Part shown: one piece after another, positions 1 to 6,662 of the stretch
Numbering within the stretch: the first letter of the stretch is position 1
Layout: every line of letters starts with the position of its first letter
Source of the DNA: an uncultured Gemmatimonadaceae bacterium
GTDB taxonomy: Bacteria > Gemmatimonadota > Gemmatimonadetes > Gemmatimonadales > Gemmatimonadaceae
NCBI GenBank assembly: GCA_963781585.1
Contig: CAWAGQ010000003.1
Coordinates: 64,001 to 128,000 of the forward strand
Reading direction: 5' to 3'
Length of the DNA: 64,000 nt
Program-made: the position numbers and the translations under genes
The notes under the pieces: model-generated
What the model was told of the DNA's origin: nothing
The model's database searches: none
The model's input: the letters and a program-made list of their open reading frames with translations, nothing else

Positions 1-1486
1 GTACCTGCGACCGGAACTGCTGCGCACCGAACAACACGAGTCCCAGGTACCGTCCGCGTTCCGCGATATCGAGCAACATGTGACGCACGTAGGTCTCGGG
101 ACCGTCGGCCGGCGCGTACTTGTTGAGTTCATCCACGAAGACGACGACATGGTTCACGCCGAGGGTCCGGCGTTCGAGGTGTTCCCGGAGCATCGAAATG
201 ACGCGCGCGAAGATCAGGTCCTGCGCGTCCTCCTCGAGGCCGGCAACGTCGATCACGTACACCGCCCGGTCCTCGAAGGTGCCCCATGGGAGGTCGCTCA
301 CCGCACCGTCGTCGGTCACCAGGCCGCGACAGCGGGTGGAGATGTTGGTAAGGCGGTTGCGCACCTTCCGGATGGTCGCGACATGATGGGTTCGCCACGC
401 CTCGGCCCCCTTCTCTTCCATGCGCAGGAGCAGTTCGCGGAACCACTGATCGAGATCGCCGAACGACTGCACCCGGTAAAGGCGGTCGCCGAGCAGCGTG
501 TGGTCGGTGAACTCCTTGCCGACCACGCGGTCGTTGATGAAGTCGATCAGGGCGTCGGCCTTGGCATCGATGTCGTCACGGTTGAGCAGCACGGCCGCGT
601 ACTTGAGGACTTCGGTGAGGCCCCAGGTCAGGGCCGACACGTTGTGCATCAGGTCGGGGTGAGAGCGAAGCGTGTTGAGGGAATGGCGGCGCGCGGTGTA
701 GGGGGCGAAGTACCGCACCCGCTCGAACGGTCGCGGCGAGACGCCTAACGCGTCGTACATCTCCCGGTCGGCGTCCTCGATCAGCGCCGGCTGGTCGAGA
801 AAGCAGAGGTCCGGGCCCTTCACATTGAAGCAGAGCGCCGCCACCGACCCTTTCGAAGCCGGGAAGTGATCGAACAACGAGGCAAGGAGGAACTCGATCG
901 CGCTCGTCTTGGTGGCCAGTCCCGAGACGCCCGTGATGTTGAGATGCGCCGCCTCAGGGCCGACCAGAAAGTCCGCATCGAGATAGATCGGCGCCTGGGT
1001 CCGCCCGGCGCGATACAGGCCCACGGGGATTCCGGTCCGCGACTCGGGACGGAGGTACGAGTCCATGCGGAGCGCCAGGGCGACATCAGCGGCGTCGGCG
1101 AGAAACACGGCCCCCATCCCCACCGGTTGCAAGGGCTCCTCGGGCTGCTGCCGCAGTACGGCCGCCGTGTACAGCCGGATCTCCGCACGCTCCGTGGGAG
1201 CGGTGGCGCCCGCTCCGGGCGCCCCGTCCAGCCCGATCACGTCGTGCAACGGTGACTCGAGGTCGGTGTAGCTCAAACCCTCCGTCACCACGCCGTAAAC
1301 GCGCGGAATCTGACCGTCGATCGGCGTCGCGCCCTCAACCCGCACGATGGTGCCGATCCCCACCGGAGAATCCAGCGCCGTCCAGAAATGAAAGGCGTGG
1401 GGCGTGTTGGGCTTTCGCTCCGTCGCAACCACGCGACCGAGCGGCGAAGGCGCGCCGTTGGAGGCGGATGGCTGGTGCTGATTCAT
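1..1486 (-). CDS. herA: HerA/FtsK-family ATPase (Deinococcus-type HerA); 3' end runs off the window
   Basis: Not in the ORF track because there is no stop in the window. Manual translation from ATG at 1486 (GAGGA RBS): MNQHQPS..LGRVVATERKPNTPHAFHFW (HAS-barrel-like start), HLNITGVSGLATKTS (variant Walker A), VVVFVDELNKYAP (Walker B), ERGRYLG (Arg-finger region), FGAQQ. Lies downstream of a NurA-like gene. Confidence 0.88.
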   Translation of the reverse strand, partial: MNQHQPSASNGAPSPLGRVVATERKPNTPHAFHFWTALDSPVGIGTIVRVEGATPIDGQIPRVYGVVTEGLSYTDLESPLHDVIGLDGAPGAGATAPTERAEIRLYTAAVLRQQPEEPLQPVGMGAVFLADAADVALALRMDSYLRPESRTGIPVGLYRAGRTQAPIYLDADFLVGPEAAHLNITGVSGLATKTSAIEFLLASLFDHFPASKGSVAALCFNVKGPDLCFLDQPALIEDADREMYDALGVSPRPFERVRYFAPYTARRHSLNTLRSHPDLMHNVSALTWGLTEVLKYAAVLLNRDDIDAKADALIDFINDRVVGKEFTDHTLLGDRLYRVQSFGDLDQWFRELLLRMEEKGAEAWRTHHVATIRKVRNRLTNISTRCRGLVTDDGAVSDLPWGTFEDRAVYVIDVAGLEEDAQDLIFARVISMLREHLERRTLGVNHVVVFVDELNKYAPADGPETYVRHMLLDIAERGRYLGLVLFGAQQFRSQV

Positions 1487-1632
1487 GGAGTCCTCGGAAC
1501 ACAAGTCAGGATCGACGCCGCTCGCAGACCAGCGCCGTCGTCACACGCGGCCGCCGCCCGCCCGCATCTTGACAGTTCTGCATGCGCCGGCCGATGCGGC
1601 GGGCAGGCCCACCGGCGTCGGGCGCATACCGG

Positions 1633-2652
1633 TTACCCGCGCACGCGCACGGCCCGAAGGTACGCCTCGCAGTCGCGGATTCCGTACGCCATCCGGTCCC
1701 ATCTCCGGTCGGGAAGCGAAACCGGACTGCGTTCGGAAAGTATCCAGCGCGAGATGGTGTCGGCACGGCTCGCGAGTGCCGGCTGCCCCGCTGTGTCCTC
1801 GGCGAATGCGACCTCCACGCGCACCAGGCCCCACATCGGGTCGTGTCCTTGCGCATCCCGCAAGCGCAGATACCAGCTCGCGACATCGGGCCGCCGACTC
1901 CGATGTACCCGAAAGACGCTGGAGCGCGTCTCGAAAGGGAGAGTCATGACGGTACGCAGGTCGTCGTTGACCGCGTACAGAGTGTGATGACTCTTGACGA
2001 CGCCGACGCACCACGGCGACGACGACGCGCGAACTCCGCGAGGTAGGCCCCCGTCCACGTACAGCGGCACTTCTGCCGATTCGCACCACAGTTCCGCCAG
2101 GTCGCGTTCCACTCCCTCGCGATCGTCCTTCACCCGTTGCAGCGCGCGTCGGAGCATCTCGCCGGGATGCAGCGGCGCGTCGGTCGGCGCACCGGCCTCG
2201 AGCGTGTCTACCATCGAGAGTCCCGCTCGCTGGAGTCTGCTCCACGCGGCCTCAGGCAGCAACGCGCGGGGTGCGTAGAGCCGGAGCCTGGCACGCGCCC
2301 CCGGACCCCAGGTGATCATGCGCCGGTCCACCCGCGAACGAATTACCGCAGCGACCCGGGCGCCGACCACCGGCACGCCATTCACATAGCCGGCTACCCG
2401 GCTCTCCTGCACGCCGTCGAGAAAGGCGACGAACGCGGTCTCCGCCACGCTCGACAGCCTGTGTGACCGGACGCGGGTTTCGCTCCCCTCGATCACCTCA
2501 CACACCTCGAGACGCGGCGGATCGGCGGGCAGGGCACCCATGTCGAGCAGCAGATCGTCGCCGAATCCGGTGGTGGCCTCCGGCAAGGTCGCGCCGAACG
2601 CGCGCCGCAGCTCGCGAAATGATCGAACGTCCAACGCCGGAACGCTGCTCAG
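1633..2652 (-). CDS. nurA: NurA-like nuclease (RNase H fold)
   Basis: Motifs FLDG, LYVDG, GVVKSH, SWYLRLR, WGLVRVE; adjacent to HerA. The track start at 2817 overlaps the Lrp gene; likelier start is CTG 2652 (CTGA overlap with the Lrp stop) or TTG 2634. Confidence 0.78.
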   Translation of the reverse strand: MSSVPALDVRSFRELRRAFGATLPEATTGFGDDLLLDMGALPADPPRLEVCEVIEGSETRVRSHRLSSVAETAFVAFLDGVQESRVAGYVNGVPVVGARVAAVIRSRVDRRMITWGPGARARLRLYAPRALLPEAAWSRLQRAGLSMVDTLEAGAPTDAPLHPGEMLRRALQRVKDDREGVERDLAELWCESAEVPLYVDGGLPRGVRASSSPWCVGVVKSHHTLYAVNDDLRTVMTLPFETRSSVFRVHRSRRPDVASWYLRLRDAQGHDPMWGLVRVEVAFAEDTAGQPALASRADTISRWILSERSPVSLPDRRWDRMAYGIRDCEAYLRAVRVRG

Positions 2653-2927
2653 GTGACGCCGATGTCCCACGCCTGTTCGAGGTCCTTCTTCGAGTACGCG
2701 CGAAACGCGGTCAACGTCTGGGTGCGCTCGATCCCCTTCACCGCGGGAAACTTCACCGTCACCACGTCGGCGATCTGATCGTAGTCCGCCACCTTCACGA
2801 TGACCACCAGATCCCACTCGCCCGACACCGAATACACGTCCTGCACACCGTCGATGCCGGCGATTTCACGGGCCGTGTCGGGAATGTGCTTCGGATCGGC
2901 ACGAACCAGCACAATGGTCGTTATCAC
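2649..2927 (-). CDS. Stand-alone Lrp/AsnC ligand-binding (RAM) domain protein, no HTH
   Basis: 92 aa: ITTIVLVRA..IAGIDGVQDVYSVSGEWDLVVIVKV..GIERTQT. GTG start overlaps the upstream TGA (GTGA). Confidence 0.88.
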   Translation of the reverse strand: MITTIVLVRADPKHIPDTAREIAGIDGVQDVYSVSGEWDLVVIVKVADYDQIADVVTVKFPAVKGIERTQTLTAFRAYSKKDLEQAWDIGVT

Positions 2928-3430
2928 TGCTCCTCGGGAAATGGGGGAACCTCCAGCAGCCACACGCCCGCCAGTCCGTCGCGGCCATCGATGTCGAGCA
3001 GCAGGTCACGCGCGATGCGCACCGTGCGCGTGCTGCGCGAGGGTCCCAACCTGAAGTGAATGATTCGTTCGGCATGGTCGGACTCGGCCGCCAGCGCCGT
3101 GTTGATCTCGAGCGCCGATACCGCGCCGTTATCACCAGACCGGCCGATGGTCACGTGCGCGTCCTCGACCTCCCCGGGCGGCGCCAGGCCCTCCCGTTTC
3201 CGCACCGCGGGCCACACCGCCACCTCGAAGCCTCGAATGCGGCCCCCGGAAACGTCGAACAGGAGCCACGATCCGTCCTGACCCTCGACGTCGACACTGC
3301 CGGACGGCCCGTCCAGCCCGGCCGGCTGCGGGAGATTGGCGGTGAGGATGTCCGTATCAGGGTCCCATCGATACTCGACCGGGCCCGGCGACTGCACCGC
3401 TGGTTGAACTCGAACGGGAATGCTCAGCAC
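2924..3430 (-). CDS. Hypothetical protein with two tandem DUF2283-like repeats
   Basis: GGAG RBS then GTG at 3430. Repeat 1: YRWDPDTDILTANL..WLLFDVSGGRIRGFEV. Repeat 2: ESDHAERIIHFRLGPSRSTRTVRIARDLLLDIDGRDGLAGVWLL. Both resemble the DUF2283 pattern YD..AD.LYI.L...V.LD.D..G.L.GIE. Confidence 0.6.
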   Translation of the reverse strand: MLSIPVRVQPAVQSPGPVEYRWDPDTDILTANLPQPAGLDGPSGSVDVEGQDGSWLLFDVSGGRIRGFEVAVWPAVRKREGLAPPGEVEDAHVTIGRSGDNGAVSALEINTALAAESDHAERIIHFRLGPSRSTRTVRIARDLLLDIDGRDGLAGVWLLEVPPFPEEQ

Positions 3431-3613
3431 ATTCGCTCCACTCTGGCGCGATAATCTCCGTCGCGAACCCCGCGTCTCCATCATCGCGCGAATGCGCAGC
3501 GAAGCGCGACACCGCACGTCGGCGCATCGGTGCGCCAAAGATACGTTGACGCTCGCCGGCGTCACCAGACTTCCGGCGCCGATGACGCGATGTTCCAGCG
3601 GACGCCGGCCGCG

Positions 3614-4831
3614 TTACGGAGTCGTTAACGCACTGTCGCGCAGTGCGTTCCAGAGCCGAACCACCCGGCGCACTCCCTCCACCACCTCCGACTCGGCCGC
3701 GGCGTACGACACCCGGATCCAGTCCGGCGCGTGGAACGCGGAACCGGGCACCACCGCCACCCCCTCGTCGTCGAGGAGCCGTGAGGCAAATGCGGAACCC
3801 GCGTTGCCCCCGAGCGCCGTCTCGCCGACGAGCAGGAACAGATAGAACGCCCCCTCGGGCCTAACGAACTGGAGCTCGGCAGCCTCGCCCAGGATCCCGA
3901 GAGCGGCGTCCCGGCGCCGCCGATATTCCGCGACCATGCGCCCGATGGCGCGCTGCGCCTGGTCCCGCTCGGTGAGCCCCGCGAGCGCCGCGTGCTGCGC
4001 CACTGTCGTGGCGTTCGACGTGGTGTGTGACTGCAGGGCCGTCATGGTCGCGGCAACCCGCGACGGCGCGATGCCCCACCCGACTCGCCACCCGGTCATC
4101 GCATACGCCTTGGCCATGCCATCTACTACAACAAGGTTGTCTCGCGCCTCGGCGACCGACAGGACACTCGCCGCCGCTCCGTCGTAGGCGATCTGTCGAT
4201 AGATCTCGTCGCTGATGACCCACAGCCCGCGTTCGGCAGCGAACCGCACGATGGCGCCCAGCTCATCCCGCGAATAGACGGCGCCGGTGGGATTGCTCGG
4301 CGAGTTCAGCACGACGCCGCGGGAGTGCGGCGTGCACGCCCGGCGGAGGTCGTCCGCGCTCACCTTCAGGCTGTGGTCCGGATCGCCGAACACTCGCACC
4401 GGCACTGCCCGCGCGAGCTCGATCATCTCGTAATAACTCGTCCACGCCGGCGTGGGCACCAGCACTTCGTCGCCCGGTCCGAAGAGCACGAAACAGGCGT
4501 TGAAGAGAGCCTGCTTCGACCCGGTGCTGACAACGACGTCGCGGGGGTCGATCGATCCGCCCGTCAGAGTCAGCTCGGCGGCGCGGGCCGCAATGGCCTG
4601 TCGCAGGGGGAGGATCCCCTCGACCGCGGTGTACTTCGTGGCACCCTCGTCGAGGGCACGCTGCGCAGCCCGACGGATGAAACCCGGCGTCTCGAAATCC
4701 GGCTCGCCGGCGCCAAGATCGATCACCCGATGCCCAGCCGCTTTCAGCGCACTCGCCTTCTGCGACACGGCGATGGTCGCCGATTCACGCAGTCGCGCTA
4801 CGTTGCCCGATGGATCGTAGGTCCTTTCCAT
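3614..4831 (-). CDS. PLP-dependent class I/II (aspartate-type) aminotransferase
   Basis: GEPDF, SPSNPTG, SDEIY, AKAYAMTGWRVG (PLP lysine), GAFY. Confidence 0.93.
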   Translation of the reverse strand: MERTYDPSGNVARLRESATIAVSQKASALKAAGHRVIDLGAGEPDFETPGFIRRAAQRALDEGATKYTAVEGILPLRQAIAARAAELTLTGGSIDPRDVVVSTGSKQALFNACFVLFGPGDEVLVPTPAWTSYYEMIELARAVPVRVFGDPDHSLKVSADDLRRACTPHSRGVVLNSPSNPTGAVYSRDELGAIVRFAAERGLWVISDEIYRQIAYDGAAASVLSVAEARDNLVVVDGMAKAYAMTGWRVGWGIAPSRVAATMTALQSHTTSNATTVAQHAALAGLTERDQAQRAIGRMVAEYRRRRDAALGILGEAAELQFVRPEGAFYLFLLVGETALGGNAGSAFASRLLDDEGVAVVPGSAFHAPDWIRVSYAAAESEVVEGVRRVVRLWNALRDSALTTP

Positions 4832-4955
4832 GGTTCGCTATGAAAATCAAGGGGCTCGCCCACGTAGAGACGCGACGCAGTCCCGGCTATACTTGAGTCC
4901 CGCATCAAAGTAACGCCGCGGGCGGTAGAGGGCTTTGACAATCGACGAGGGAACC

Positions 4956-6662
4956 GTGGAGCAGGGCATCCGGGAAGAGCCGGCTGCAACGCGCAGCCAG
5001 CACGTTGTGCATGTGATCCGCCGCGAGAGCGCCGAGGCAGCGCGCATCGTTGCGGCAGCCGTCGAACGAAACCCCGCCGAGGGAGGCCGCCCGGGCGTGG
5101 TGGTGGTGGTGCCCGCGGTGAGCGATGCGATCGCACTCGCAGAAGAGCTCAATCCGCAGCTGTCTGCATCCGGCCCGTCCCTCCTGCCGGTCACGTCGTT
5201 GCCTCGGGCGAGGCGCCGACTGGCAGGTCGGGACCTGTCGGTTGCCGGCACAGCGTCGGATCTGCTGCGCCTCCTGGGCACATCGGCGCTCAAGCTGGAC
5301 GCGGCGCACACGGCCGTGTTGCTGTGGGCGAATGAGCAGATGGAGCCGCAGGCGCGCGAGGTTCTCGACACCATCTTTGCGGAGCTGCCCAAAGAGGGAG
5401 AGCGAATTGCCATCGCCGCGGACACGAGCGACGCGCTGAACGAGTTTCTCGAACGCTGGATGCGTCGTGCCAGACGCGTCGTACACGACCAACCGGTCGC
5501 CGCCGCGGACGTTGCGCTTCAGTACCTCGTGAGCGCCCCCGCGAGCCGACTCGACGCATTGCGCCTGCTGCTCGATGCCATCGACCCACCGACTGCTCGG
5601 GTCGTGGCGTTTGGCGACGAAGGGGGGCGGCTGGCCGCACGCGCCGTGTCCGCGCTGGGTTATGTGGCGGGAGACGACGTTCGCGTGACAGCAGGACCGC
5701 CATCCGAGGACACCGACCTCCTTGTGCTTTTCGACGATCCCCCGGACGCGGAGGTCCTGCGACAGGCCGTGTCCCGGGCGCGCGTTGCCGTGGCGTTGGT
5801 GCCACCGTCTCACGTCTCGCGCCTGTGCGCCCTTGCTGGACCAGGGTGCACACCGCTCACGCTCAGCGACGCGTTCCAGGCGGCTCGTTCGGCGGACGAC
5901 GCGCTCCGCGACGAGCTGCGCGGCGTGATGCGCGGCGGAGCGATCGACGCGCAGATCCGTCAGATCGAGCCGCTGTGCGACGAGCAGGACCCTGTTCGCA
6001 TCGCCGCTGCCGCCGTCCTTCTCCTGCAGAAGGAGCGACAGCGGGCCCGTCGTTCCGCGGAGCGAGCGGCGCCGCGACAGACGGTTGCCGCGGCCAATCC
6101 GGCTCCCGCGGAGTCGTTCGCGCGGTTGTACCTCAACGTGGGAGAGCGGGACGGTGTCCGTCGCGGCGATCTGGTGGGCGCCATCACGGGCGAGACAGGT
6201 CTGGTTGGCACCCAGATCGGGCGAATCGAGTTGCGCGACACGCACGCGATCGTGGAGATCGCCAGCGACGTCGCGGCCCGCGTGATCGAGCAGCTCAATG
6301 GAGCGAACATCCGCGGCCGGCGCGTAGTGGCGCGCGAAGATCGCGAACGGGGTCAGAAGGGCCCGCCGGCTCGCGGTCGGGAGGAGCGCGGCGCTCCGCG
6401 CGGCCGGGAGGAGCGCGGCGCCCAGCGCGGCCGGGAGGAGCGCGGCGGTCCTAGGGGTCGGGAGGAGCGAGGCACCCAGCGCGCCCACGGCGCAGGCGAC
6501 AAGCGGGTGGGGCGATCCACGAGCGCTGGACGCGGTCGCAAAGTCGATGACATCGAGCGCGTTCCACGAGCGACGCATGAAGCCGAGGAGTGGTCAGCAC
6601 GTGGTGAGCGGCTCCGCCTGTCGCGGGGTGGACCCGAAGAAAGCGATCGGGAGGGTGCATGA
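4956..6662 (+). CDS. Degenerate DEAD-box (DeaD/CsdA-like) protein with DbpA RNA-binding domain; catalytic motifs absent
   Basis: C-terminal [38 protein letters not shown] matches the DbpA RBD. Remnants of motifs Ia/Ib/II ([29 protein letters not shown]); no GKT, DEAD or HRIGR. Start at GTG 4956 or TTG 4935. Confidence 0.75.
6372..6479 (+). repeat. 4 x 27-bp coding tandem repeat (RGREERGxx)
   Basis: Imperfect CGCGGYCGGGAGGAGCGCGGCGCNCMG-like units in the tail of the DeaD-like gene. Confidence 0.9.

Follow-up and report, generated by a model that had tools for sequence, protein, structure and literature searches.

An archaeal-style nurA-herA-mre11-rad50 repair cluster in Gemmatimonadales and its lineage-specific small companion genes

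An archaeal herA-mre11-rad50-nurA operon is attributed in PMC9960219 to Constantinesco 2004. To our knowledge, the NurA-HerA pair of Deinococcus is not located beside SbcCD. In D. radiodurans and archaea, as described in PMC9960219, the HerA ring feeds duplex DNA to a NurA dimer, the 5' strand is degraded and a 3' tail is left, and Mre11-Rad50 works alongside at the DNA break. The same source presents the repair role of bacterial NurA-HerA as disputed, with deletion mutants of Deinococcus and Thermus showing modest or improved resistance.

The window analysed here is a stretch of 64,000 nucleotides from an uncultured Gemmatimonadaceae bacterium. Four co-oriented minus-strand genes are found at its start, as a preliminary description had reported, with an aminotransferase gene upstream of them (Table 1). 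That description placed no mre11 or rad50 in the window, which is true; both genes are just past base 1. About 500 nt of the HerA gene lie outside the window (with an upstream TTG as start, the full protein has 667 aa), and the strand continues with genes for a 281-aa protein, Mre11, Rad50, and a GNAT acetyltransferase. The cluster order is therefore (aminotransferase)-168-aa protein-RAM-NurA-HerA-281-aa protein-Mre11-Rad50-GNAT. Because these four further genes continue past base 1, this is an archaeal-style nurA-herA-mre11-rad50 repair cluster and not a defence island. With Mre11 and Rad50 directly downstream, the genes belong to the known end-resection set, and a self-contained nuclease-translocase module is not supported. 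The region is probably (probability about 0.7) the 5' half of a vertically inherited cluster for processing the ends of double-strand breaks in DNA. Literature searches found no description of the 168-aa protein, RAM, NurA, and HerA in this arrangement, in line with the earlier statement that none was known.

Table 1. Genes and candidate elements of the cluster (window positions; downstream genes by their L002 positions)
Feature	Position	Strand	Evidence or remark
Class I/II aminotransferase, aspartate-aminotransferase-like, 405 aa	3614..4831	-	Pfam Aminotran_1_2, 1.3e-72
TATCTT, -10-like motif, candidate promoter element (lead only)	3538..3543	-	113 nt 5' of 168-aa gene start
168-aa all-beta protein ("DUF2283x2", P0002), GTG start	2924..3430	-	Weak DUF2283 similarity of first half; fold model
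Stand-alone RAM (Lrp/AsnC ligand-binding) protein, 92 aa, GTG start	2649..2927	-	Pfam AsnC_trans_reg
NurA nuclease, bacterial (Deinococcus) type, 333 aa from TTG 2634; alternative GTG 2670	1633..2634	-	Profile and fold matches
HerA ATPase/translocase, N-terminal ~495 residues, runs off window	1..1486	-	Match to D. radiodurans HerA
281-aa protein, N-terminal hydrophobic stretch	L002 12556-13401	same as HerA	Outside window
Mre11	L002 11154-12350	same as HerA	Metallophos, SbcD and Mre11 models
Rad50	L002 8692-11157	same as HerA	SMC_N and archaeal Rad50 models
GNAT acetyltransferase	L002 7721-8695	same as HerA	Outside window

The names NurA and HerA, given earlier from the sequence, are borne out by matches to the solved D. 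radiodurans NurA-HerA complex (PDB 7f6d; PMC9960219). The match of full-length HerA to its D. radiodurans counterpart (7f6d_B, 1.2e-43) has two parts: residues 21-269 and 344-574 align with chain residues 14-268 and 368-602, taking in the N-terminal barrel region as well as the RecA-like domain. HerA's Walker A (GVSGLATKT, residue 192) and Walker B (VFVDELNKYAP, residue 458) are both aligned to the drHerA motifs, for which K175/T176 and D487/E488 are the residues named in PMC9960219. The single NurA sequence retrieves no NurA match, and the NurA family profile searched against the whole PDB has D. radiodurans NurA (7f6d_H, 7.3e-5) as its sole match. The predicted NurA model (pLDDT 83.9) ranks drNurA (7f6d_G, 5.4e-11), T. 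maritima 1zup_A (6.8e-9), and S. solfataricus NurA (2ygk_A, 2.9e-5) at the top in Foldseek, and is predicted to have the RNase H-like catalytic fold common to solved NurA structures. "DG" motifs I and II, listed for the NurA active site in PMC13748450, are found as FLDG (D73-G74) and YVDGG (D194-G195) and are invariant in 32 family sequences. At the level of the predicted proteins, NurA and HerA are shown to be of the Deinococcus type with catalytic motifs kept. As in D. radiodurans, the two genes are adjacent and co-oriented. Identity is low, however (18% for NurA in the Foldseek alignment), and here the pair is embedded with Mre11-Rad50 and has two small genes in front. HMM searches, proposed earlier for all four proteins, succeeded in part: RAM was found solidly, but NurA has no match among Pfam, NCBIfam, and PADLOC models, HerA has only weak ones in these collections (none for the full-length protein in Pfam at E<=0.01), and DUF2283 stays under its threshold.

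Mre11 and Rad50 also keep their characteristic residues. Those of the Mre11 phosphoesterase motifs are invariant in 14 sequences, and Rad50 has the Walker A GPNGSGKT and a central CxxC hook (CPTC at residue 405). The best-scoring models for Rad50 are the archaeal Rad50 ones (1.6e-53 vs 4.3e-23 for SbcC). Like the archaeal operon, the locus holds the same four functions in one co-oriented cluster. Unlike it, the host is a bacterium, NurA and HerA belong to the bacterial type, the genes come in another order, and genes for the 168-aa protein, RAM, the 281-aa protein, and GNAT are added. Of 49 Gemmatimonadaceae loci whose downstream sequence reaches at least 7.5 kb, 44 have NurA, HerA, Mre11, and Rad50 together, and the order of the four repair genes is the same in all 12 loci of another family of the order (f2; L083-L094) fetched around the 168-aa gene and NurA.

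Three genes of the cluster have no obvious role in repair: the aminotransferase, the 281-aa protein with its N-terminal hydrophobic stretch, and GNAT. Therefore, synteny in this order may be conservative for non-functional reasons.

The 168-aa gene and RAM gene share the start/stop overlap GTGA at 2924-2927, as had been noted. This -1 overlap geometry is repeated in 11 of 54 related loci, 53 of which have a gap of at most 45 nt; the GTG start of the 168-aa protein is consistent with family lengths of about 165-168 aa. A second overlap, CTGA at 2649-2652, had been proposed between RAM and NurA. The letters are there, but CTG is unlikely as the NurA start. The closest homologue starts at the position matching TTG 2634, 14 nt past the RAM stop, and the database gene call (345 aa) implies GTG 2670 and a 22-nt overlap with RAM; the junction is tight with either start. 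The 146-nt spacer between NurA and HerA is also confirmed, as is GAGGA 4 nt before ATG 1486, matching the RBS noted for HerA. No terminator-like site is found on the minus strand between the 168-aa gene and Rad50. The aminotransferase, which scores 7.7e-107 with NCBIfam aspartate aminotransferase models (under the equivalog cut-off), is separated from the 168-aa gene by 183 nt containing a weak hairpin-plus-T site and the -10-like motif. In 29 of 50 related loci, the 200 nt upstream of the 168-aa gene contain TATCT[TC] or TATATC, vs 4% of 2000 random 200-nt windows from the same loci, a post hoc comparison in which the motif was spotted by eye in the same data. A generic promoter scan gives nothing at the TATCTT site.

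The 168-aa protein had been called a tandem DUF2283-like protein; by sequence it is weakly so, in its first half only. Small DUF2283 (PF10049) proteins are predicted antitoxin partners. The FseA domain on integrative elements (PMC4755241) belongs to DUF2283. Residues 21-69 alone match DUF2283, with 14.8-16 bits (cut-off 23) and E values of 0.014-0.033. Of the family members, 21/31 match at E<0.1 (best 1.1e-5), and a relationship below the threshold is plausible from sequence. The second copy is not found. None of four C-terminal halves matches any Pfam family at E<=10, and when the halves are compared profile to profile, just 13 columns align (E 0.059). Unlike DUF2283 proteins, the 168-aa protein has no toxin partner here and its context is not a mobile element.

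The model of the 168-aa protein (pLDDT 91.1, pTM 0.88) has two similar sheets, and its single strong match among solved folds is 7vmc_C (Foldseek 4.1e-7, TM 0.68; VIA Z 14.1, rmsd 3.2 Å over 156 residues; next best Z 3.4). This chain, CdiI-EC869, is an immunity protein against a contact-dependent-inhibition tRNase toxin and, according to PMC9071432, covers that toxin's catalytic site. The 168-aa protein is confidently modelled as a two-sheet beta-sandwich like this immunity protein, and has a similar size (168 vs 177 residues). The earlier description as antitoxin-like survives in the sense of antitoxin- or immunity-like. Note that fold likeness at 10% identity says nothing on function, and that the PDB profile search has no match at the sequence level. 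Unlike CdiI-EC869, the 168-aa gene adjoins no toxin gene (its neighbours are the aminotransferase, RAM, and NurA, and HMM scans find no toxin family), and it is single-copy, order-wide, and vertically conserved, not part of a polymorphic toxin locus. The family is found in 33/69, 97/125, and 3/3 genomes of families f1, f2, and f3, respectively, with two marginal matches in 103 other genomes; 290 of 1.84 billion representatives match at E<=0.001. As judged by these matches, it is shown to be confined to this order, and its members are 32-45% identical across families.

The other small gene was assigned an Lrp/AsnC sensor domain, and correctly so. Its product matches Pfam AsnC_trans_reg above the cut-off (1.5e-15, 57.2 bits; cut-off 25) and has no DNA-binding domain. 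In the longest frame (104 aa) the match spans residues 18-88, which correspond to about 6-76 in the 92-aa protein. The best solved relative is 2djw_A, a 92-aa AsnC-family protein that also consists of the RAM domain only and matches end to end (9.7e-17 over residues 2-90). Similar stand-alone proteins, P. horikoshii DM1 and S. tokodaii STS042, are thought to form hetero-oligomers with full-length Lrp regulators (PMC2995911); no Lrp gene adjoins the RAM gene here. RAM orthologues exist in 78/87 f1 and 20/27 f3 genomes but in only 9/86 of f2, where the copies lie outside the cluster, on a different contig or at a distance of about 263 kb. Going by these matches, RAM genes are for the most part limited to two of three families.

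The small genes had been expected to be linked to nurA-herA in related genomes, and they are. Of the 95 genomes with both genes listed, 91 have the 168-aa gene upstream of NurA, sharing its contig and strand (gaps of 35-2843 nt in 90 genomes, 17 kb in one). The remaining four have them on different contigs, and opposite orientation is found in none. In all 70 loci that have 1.5 kb or more of upstream sequence, RAM precedes NurA. It adjoins nurA (gap <700 nt) in 23 of 71 loci, the window included. In 38 of the 71 loci, all from the window's own family, a lipoprotein-like gene on the opposite strand separates RAM from nurA; in these loci the small genes cannot be transcribed together with nurA.

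The small genes persist in loci that lack nurA, herA, or both, and adjoin the next repair gene there, herA or mre11. For example, the 168-aa gene is 2 nt from herA in L095 and L096, and RAM is about 40 nt from mre11 in L109, L110, L111, and L117. The 168-aa gene is found without a NurA match in 31/136 genomes, and NurA without the 168-aa gene in 55/157 genomes of f1 and f2. Cross-tabulation of the genome tables, in which related genomes are not independent data points, gives NurA in 29/33 f1 genomes with the 168-aa gene vs 27/36 without, and in 73/97 vs 28/28 for f2. There is no positive association between the two genes, and neither small gene is required wherever NurA exists.

The preliminary description pictured a dedicated NurA-HerA module gated by a RAM oligomer and an antitoxin-like protein, possibly against phage. 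The closeness of RAM to nurA in the 23 loci and the immunity-protein fold agree with this, and so do five loci in which the cluster is split. RAM stays with NurA in all five and the 168-aa gene in three, and herA is elsewhere in four, followed by the 281-aa gene in 4/4 and mre11 in 3/4 (one genome, of 1.7 Mb, has no herA match). In addition, a 2026 review (PMC13748450) has it that bacterial NurA-HerA mainly degrade viral DNA, and PADLOC gives HerA a weak mad8 match (2.9e-10). PADLOC finds nothing, however, for the small genes or NurA, and its matches to Rad50 are generic SMC-type ones. The traits of a HerA-based anti-phage system were not found: PADLOC gives no more than these matches, and the distribution is order-wide, not island-like. 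G+C is even over the region (0.64-0.71), and throughout the order the cluster keeps its place and is not patchy. Since Mre11-Rad50 follow in the same cluster, the f2 clusters lack RAM (found in 0 of 12 loci holding NurA), both small genes outlast nurA or herA, and many genomes have NurA without the 168-aa gene, such a self-contained gated module is unlikely. Another reading is that the small genes serve the aminotransferase, RAM as amino-acid sensor and the 168-aa protein as partner in amino-acid metabolism, with the repair genes as a separate unit. Amino acids are the ligands of RAM domains (PMC2995911), the 168-aa gene directly follows the aminotransferase in 20 of 20 f2 and f3 loci (f2 gaps roughly 0-110 nt), and the aminotransferase adjoins RAM in L106, L112, and L114, which lack the 168-aa gene, nurA, and herA. 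In the window's family, however, just 13 of the 46 loci that extend far enough upstream have it in that position, and 30 keep both small genes without it. The spacer with its hairpin-plus-T site and conserved -10-like motif also separates it from the small genes, which overlap or abut the genes downstream. This reading, too, is unlikely.

Two readings of the small genes carry more weight and are about equally likely, each somewhat short of even odds. The small genes may have a function unrelated to repair, for example as a two-gene unit of their own, and be held in place by conservative gene order only. This is consistent with their loss or retention independently of nurA and herA, the opposite-strand gene that parts RAM from nurA, the post hoc candidate promoter motif of their own, the f2 RAM orthologues elsewhere in the genome, and the conservation of the apparently unrelated aminotransferase, 281-aa protein, and GNAT in the same block. 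Against it, the 168-aa gene holds its position across families at such low protein identity, never on the other strand and always directly preceding the first repair gene, several different deletion variants included, and the small genes remain where the aminotransferase is gone. The other, equally tentative reading, by analogy with CdiI-EC869, is that the 168-aa protein may be a protein-binding accessory that checks or tethers a nuclease of the cluster, with RAM adding an amino-acid input, because in its model it has the fold of an immunity protein, one that blocks the active site of a nuclease.

In the repair cluster of Gemmatimonadales, by analogy with the work on D. radiodurans and archaea, the HerA ring would pump duplex DNA into the NurA dimer. 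NurA would degrade the 5' strand, leaving a 3' tail for recombination, and Mre11-Rad50 would act alongside NurA-HerA on the break. The neighbourhood link of the small genes with nurA-herA is real, and specific control of NurA-HerA is not supported. As lineage-specific companions, the small genes are shown to go with the cluster as a whole and not with NurA-HerA in particular: the repair gene that leads the cluster, be it nurA, herA, or mre11, has the 168-aa gene directly 5' of it, and in two of three families RAM is there as well. As accessories, the 168-aa protein would, on its predicted fold, hold a cluster nuclease in check or tether it, and the RAM oligomer would add an amino-acid-dependent input to the cluster.

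The gene cluster at the left end of the window goes on beyond base 1, where the minus strand carries genes for a 281-aa protein, Mre11, Rad50, and a GNAT acetyltransferase. The preliminary description noted that no mre11 or rad50 lay in the window but that genes beyond its edge could not be seen. Both are found just past base 1, downstream on the same strand, and this caveat is thus settled: the cluster is nurA-herA-mre11-rad50. Mre11 matches the models Metallophos, SbcD, and Mre11, and its motif residues show no variation in 14 sequences. Rad50 (821 aa) scores highest against archaeal Rad50 models (1.6e-53); it carries a Walker A motif and, at its center, a CPTC hook. The Mre11 and Rad50 genes overlap by 4 nt, as do those of Rad50 and GNAT. 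The core of the cluster is an end-resection gene set of known kind. As outlined in passages of PMC9960219, in Deinococcus and archaea a NurA dimer receives duplex DNA from the HerA ring; NurA removes the 5' strand, and Mre11-Rad50 cooperates.

Features of the cluster and its surroundings. Positions are those of the window unless a fetched locus is named (L002, the window genome's locus running beyond base 1; L020, another fetched locus).
Feature	Position	Strand	Remarks
575-aa ORF	4935-6662	plus	divergent from aminotransferase gene
Aminotransferase	3614-4831	minus	
Weak hairpin-plus-T	3547-3564	minus	stem of 6 pairs; 50 nt past aminotransferase stop
Candidate -10-like motif TATCTT	3538-3543	minus	upstream of 168-aa gene
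Spacer with inverted repeats	3470-3520	minus	before 168-aa gene
168-aa protein	2924-3430	minus	GTG start
RAM protein, 92 aa	2649-2927	minus	
NurA-like protein, 333 aa	1633-2634	minus	
HerA	from ATG 1486	minus	runs past window edge
281-aa protein	L002 12556-13401	minus	outside window, between herA and mre11; N-terminal hydrophobic stretch; weak DUF6263 match (E 0.007)
GNAT acetyltransferase, 324 aa	L002 7721-8695	minus	outside window; start 4 nt inside rad50 stop
Strong terminator-like hairpin	L002 7068-7097	minus	outside window; 13 pairs (11 G-C); about 620 nt past GNAT stop
Lipoprotein-like gene, example	L020 8984-9973	minus	contains 'LAAGC'; absent from window

HMM libraries alone do not name NurA or HerA. 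NurA has no match in Pfam, NCBIfam, or PADLOC, and HerA has only weak ones. The full-length HerA (667 aa, taken from the genome to which the window belongs) has D. radiodurans HerA (7f6d_B) as a match at 1.2e-43, and its Walker A and Walker B regions align with those of that chain. Since a PDB search with the single NurA sequence gave no meaningful match, a family profile was needed. Built from 32 NurA-like sequences and run against the whole PDB, it matched one entry only, D. radiodurans NurA (7f6d_H, 7.3e-5). The NurA model (pLDDT 83.9) has D. radiodurans NurA, T. maritima 1zup, and S. solfataricus NurA as its top folds, and both DG motifs are invariant. The RAM protein, a stand-alone Lrp/AsnC ligand-binding domain, is clear in Pfam (57 bits against a cut-off of 25) and matches the solved 92-aa stand-alone RAM protein 2djw_A end to end (9.7e-17). 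The names first given to HerA, NurA, and the Lrp/AsnC sensor domain from the sequence alone are confirmed.

The junctions described earlier hold in part. The start/stop overlap GTGA is present at 2924-2927, and herA follows a spacer of 146 nt with its own RBS, GAGGA, 4 nt before the ATG. The letters CTGA do occur at 2649-2652, but CTG is improbable as a start. The closest homologue (88% identity) starts at the position of TTG 2634, while the database's 345-aa gene call implies GTG 2670; the RAM-nurA junction therefore lies between -22 and +14 nt. The region has an even G+C content (0.64-0.71), and a generic scan of it for sigma-70 promoters and terminators gave no more sites than shuffled sequences.

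Several other elements surround these genes. The tail of the weak hairpin past the aminotransferase gene, ACGTATCTTT, overlaps the TATCTT motif; such terminator-like sites are no commoner than in shuffled sequence. The spacer before the 168-aa gene has short inverted repeats, here and in L003-L009, of the type TGCG...CGCA in the closest relatives (GCGTTC-N10-GAACGC in L004, for instance), where GATGATG follows them. These repeats with GATGATG may serve as an operator or form an RNA hairpin. As a motif, GATGAYG was dropped, being found upstream of the 168-aa gene in just 9 of 51 loci. The C-terminal region of the divergent 575-aa ORF has repeated RGREERG units, and in L020, where the aminotransferase gene is missing, a 558-aa homologue lies directly upstream of the 168-aa gene. 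At the other end, the strong hairpin past the GNAT gene may mark the end of the transcription unit. In each of the three families of the order, nearly every locus has the GNAT gene after rad50, and the GNAT protein may be a conserved partner of Rad50. The 281-aa protein is an odd member for a DNA-repair cluster; its gene is kept between herA and mre11 in most loci of the window's family (f1) and was not detected in those of the second family (f2).

Conservation was examined in 80 loci fetched around NurA relatives, all titled as Gemmatimonadaceae or its order, onto which nine query proteins were mapped. RAM lies upstream of NurA in all 70 loci with at least 1.5 kb of upstream sequence. The 168-aa gene is directly 5' of RAM in 54 of the 68 loci with room for it, with a gap of at most 45 nt in 53 of these, and 44 of the 49 loci whose downstream sequence reaches at least 7.5 kb contain all four repair genes. 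RAM adjoins nurA (gap below 700 nt) in just 23 of 71 loci; in 38 of the 71, a lipoprotein-like gene of about 329 aa, homologous across loci, lies between them on the opposite strand. Five loci lack herA downstream, and in four of their genomes herA is found elsewhere, followed in 4/4 by the 281-aa gene and then in three by mre11 (the fourth locus ends first). In those four, the herA-281-aa block lies on a separate contig or over 1 Mb off; the loci with this break between nurA and herA are L004, L005, L009, L026, and L079, with L118-L121. After the split, nurA therefore still has RAM beside it, and in three of the five loci (L004, L005, and L009, where the aminotransferase gene also precedes) the 168-aa gene as well.

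Other families keep parts of this order. Twenty loci of f2 and of the third family (f3) were fetched, 12 with NurA and 8 picked because NurA was not found. The 12 read aminotransferase-168-aa gene-nurA-herA-mre11-rad50-GNAT, and RAM is in none of them (0/12). Among the other eight, herA comes 2 to about 800 nt after the 168-aa gene in four (L095, L096, L100, L101) and about 1 kb further on in L097, and mre11-rad50 follows without herA in L098 and L099; in L102 neither is found within 9.5 kb. Twelve further loci show more variants. In f3 (4/4), the order is aminotransferase-168-aa gene-RAM-mre11-rad50-GNAT, and RAM and mre11 are some 40 nt apart. The loci of one f1 genus (3/3) lack nurA and herA and have aminotransferase-RAM, about 1.2 kb, then 281-aa gene-mre11-rad50. 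L108 has the 168-aa gene and RAM, then the 281-aa gene and mre11, and L113 has RAM-herA. Both small genes are genuine and conserved, and their position ties them to the whole cluster rather than to NurA-HerA specifically. The preliminary description linked them to nurA-herA; the conserved neighborhood stands, but the genes are also kept in loci without nurA or herA.

Across a sample of 301 genomes of the phylum (including three unpublished ones, G157, G182, and G057, on which alone no claim rests), the 168-aa gene is confined to the window's order: f1 33/69, f2 97/125, and f3 3/3, with two marginal matches (E about 1e-3) in the remaining 103. NurA is wider (f1 56/69, f2 101/125, f3 0/3, and some other families). 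RAM orthologues are found in 78/87 genomes of f1, 20/27 of f3, and 9/86 of f2; among the matches listed, the f2 copies are found some 263 kb away from the cluster or on different contigs. In 3/3 loci from other orders of the class (L103-L105), NurA is present, and the small genes and the aminotransferase gene are not.

The 168-aa protein had been called a tandem DUF2283-like protein. Its first half (residues 21-69) is weakly similar to DUF2283, at 14.8-16 bits against a cut-off of 23, and 21 of 31 relatives match at E<0.1. A tandem is not supported: Pfam matched nothing in C-terminal halves of the family (0/4), and in a profile-profile comparison the likeness of the two halves was not significant. 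A PDB profile search with the family gave nothing significant (best E 0.74). The structural model, a confident one (pLDDT 91.1, pTM 0.88, 14 strands), has one strong match, 7vmc chain C (Foldseek 4.1e-7), with Z 14.1 and an rmsd of 3.2 A over 156 residues; the runner-up has Z 3.4. This chain is CdiI-EC869, described in sections of PMC9071432 as an immunity protein of two six-stranded sheets that masks the catalytic site of a tRNase toxin, in a 3.4 A structure for which AlphaFold models provided the phases. The 168-aa protein belongs to a small family, with 290 of 1.84 billion representatives at E<=0.001 and 773 proteins in a 90%-identity collection. In the ESM Atlas, only the protein's own Gemmatimonadota clusters match, one auto-named DUF2283. 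Longer forms among the 290 (P0295 with an epimerase fragment, P0278 with TctC, three others with nothing) were read as gene-calling artefacts and give no functional hint.

From its immunity-like fold, we propose that the 168-aa protein binds a nuclease and holds it in check, a reading of the predicted structure to which we give a probability of about 0.35-0.4. About equally likely is that the small genes reflect mere synteny. Among the matches listed, in the 95 genomes where both genes have coordinates (34 further NurA matches fall outside this count), the 168-aa gene is upstream of NurA on the same contig and strand in 91, with gaps of 35-2843 nt in 90 of them and a single gap of 17 kb; the two genes are on different contigs in four and never in opposite orientation. 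NurA is present in 29/33 f1 genomes with the 168-aa gene versus 27/36 without it, and in 73/97 versus 28/28 in f2; this cross-tabulation shows no positive association, related genomes being non-independent data points. If the small genes are unrelated passengers, the finding shrinks to a repair cluster of the ordinary kind whose gene order is conservative.

That the small genes instead act with the aminotransferase is quite improbable: its gene is directly upstream of the 168-aa gene in 20/20 loci of f2 and f3, but 30 of 46 f1 loci with enough upstream sequence keep the small genes without it. A role in anti-phage defence, raised for HerA with a nuclease partner, is the least probable reading by far and was rejected on context and distribution. 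To return to nuclease restraint, the bacterial Mre11-Rad50-HerA-NurA resection machine may have co-opted an immunity-protein fold as an accessory factor encoded on the chromosome. So long as no break is sensed, the 168-aa protein would keep one of the repair nucleases (NurA or Mre11) bound and masked, and in two families the stand-alone RAM oligomer would tie this restraint to amino-acid status. Taken as a whole, this more specific scheme is rather unlikely.

The arrangement appears undescribed, as first supposed: a literature search found nothing linking Gemmatimonadota with NurA-HerA and nothing on DUF2283 concerning repair, supplementary files, which may list bacterial gene neighborhoods, being outside the search. 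If masking is true, the 168-aa protein would be the first protein with that fold known to inhibit or regulate NurA-HerA or bacterial Mre11-Rad50. At its head the cluster has a well-conserved protein, specific to the order and with a nuclease-immunity fold, which is thus a concrete candidate regulator of end resection. The role of bacterial NurA-HerA in recombinational repair is disputed, according to part of PMC9960219. That a whole bacterial order keeps the four repair genes together argues, at the genomic level, for a shared role and identifies organisms for testing it.
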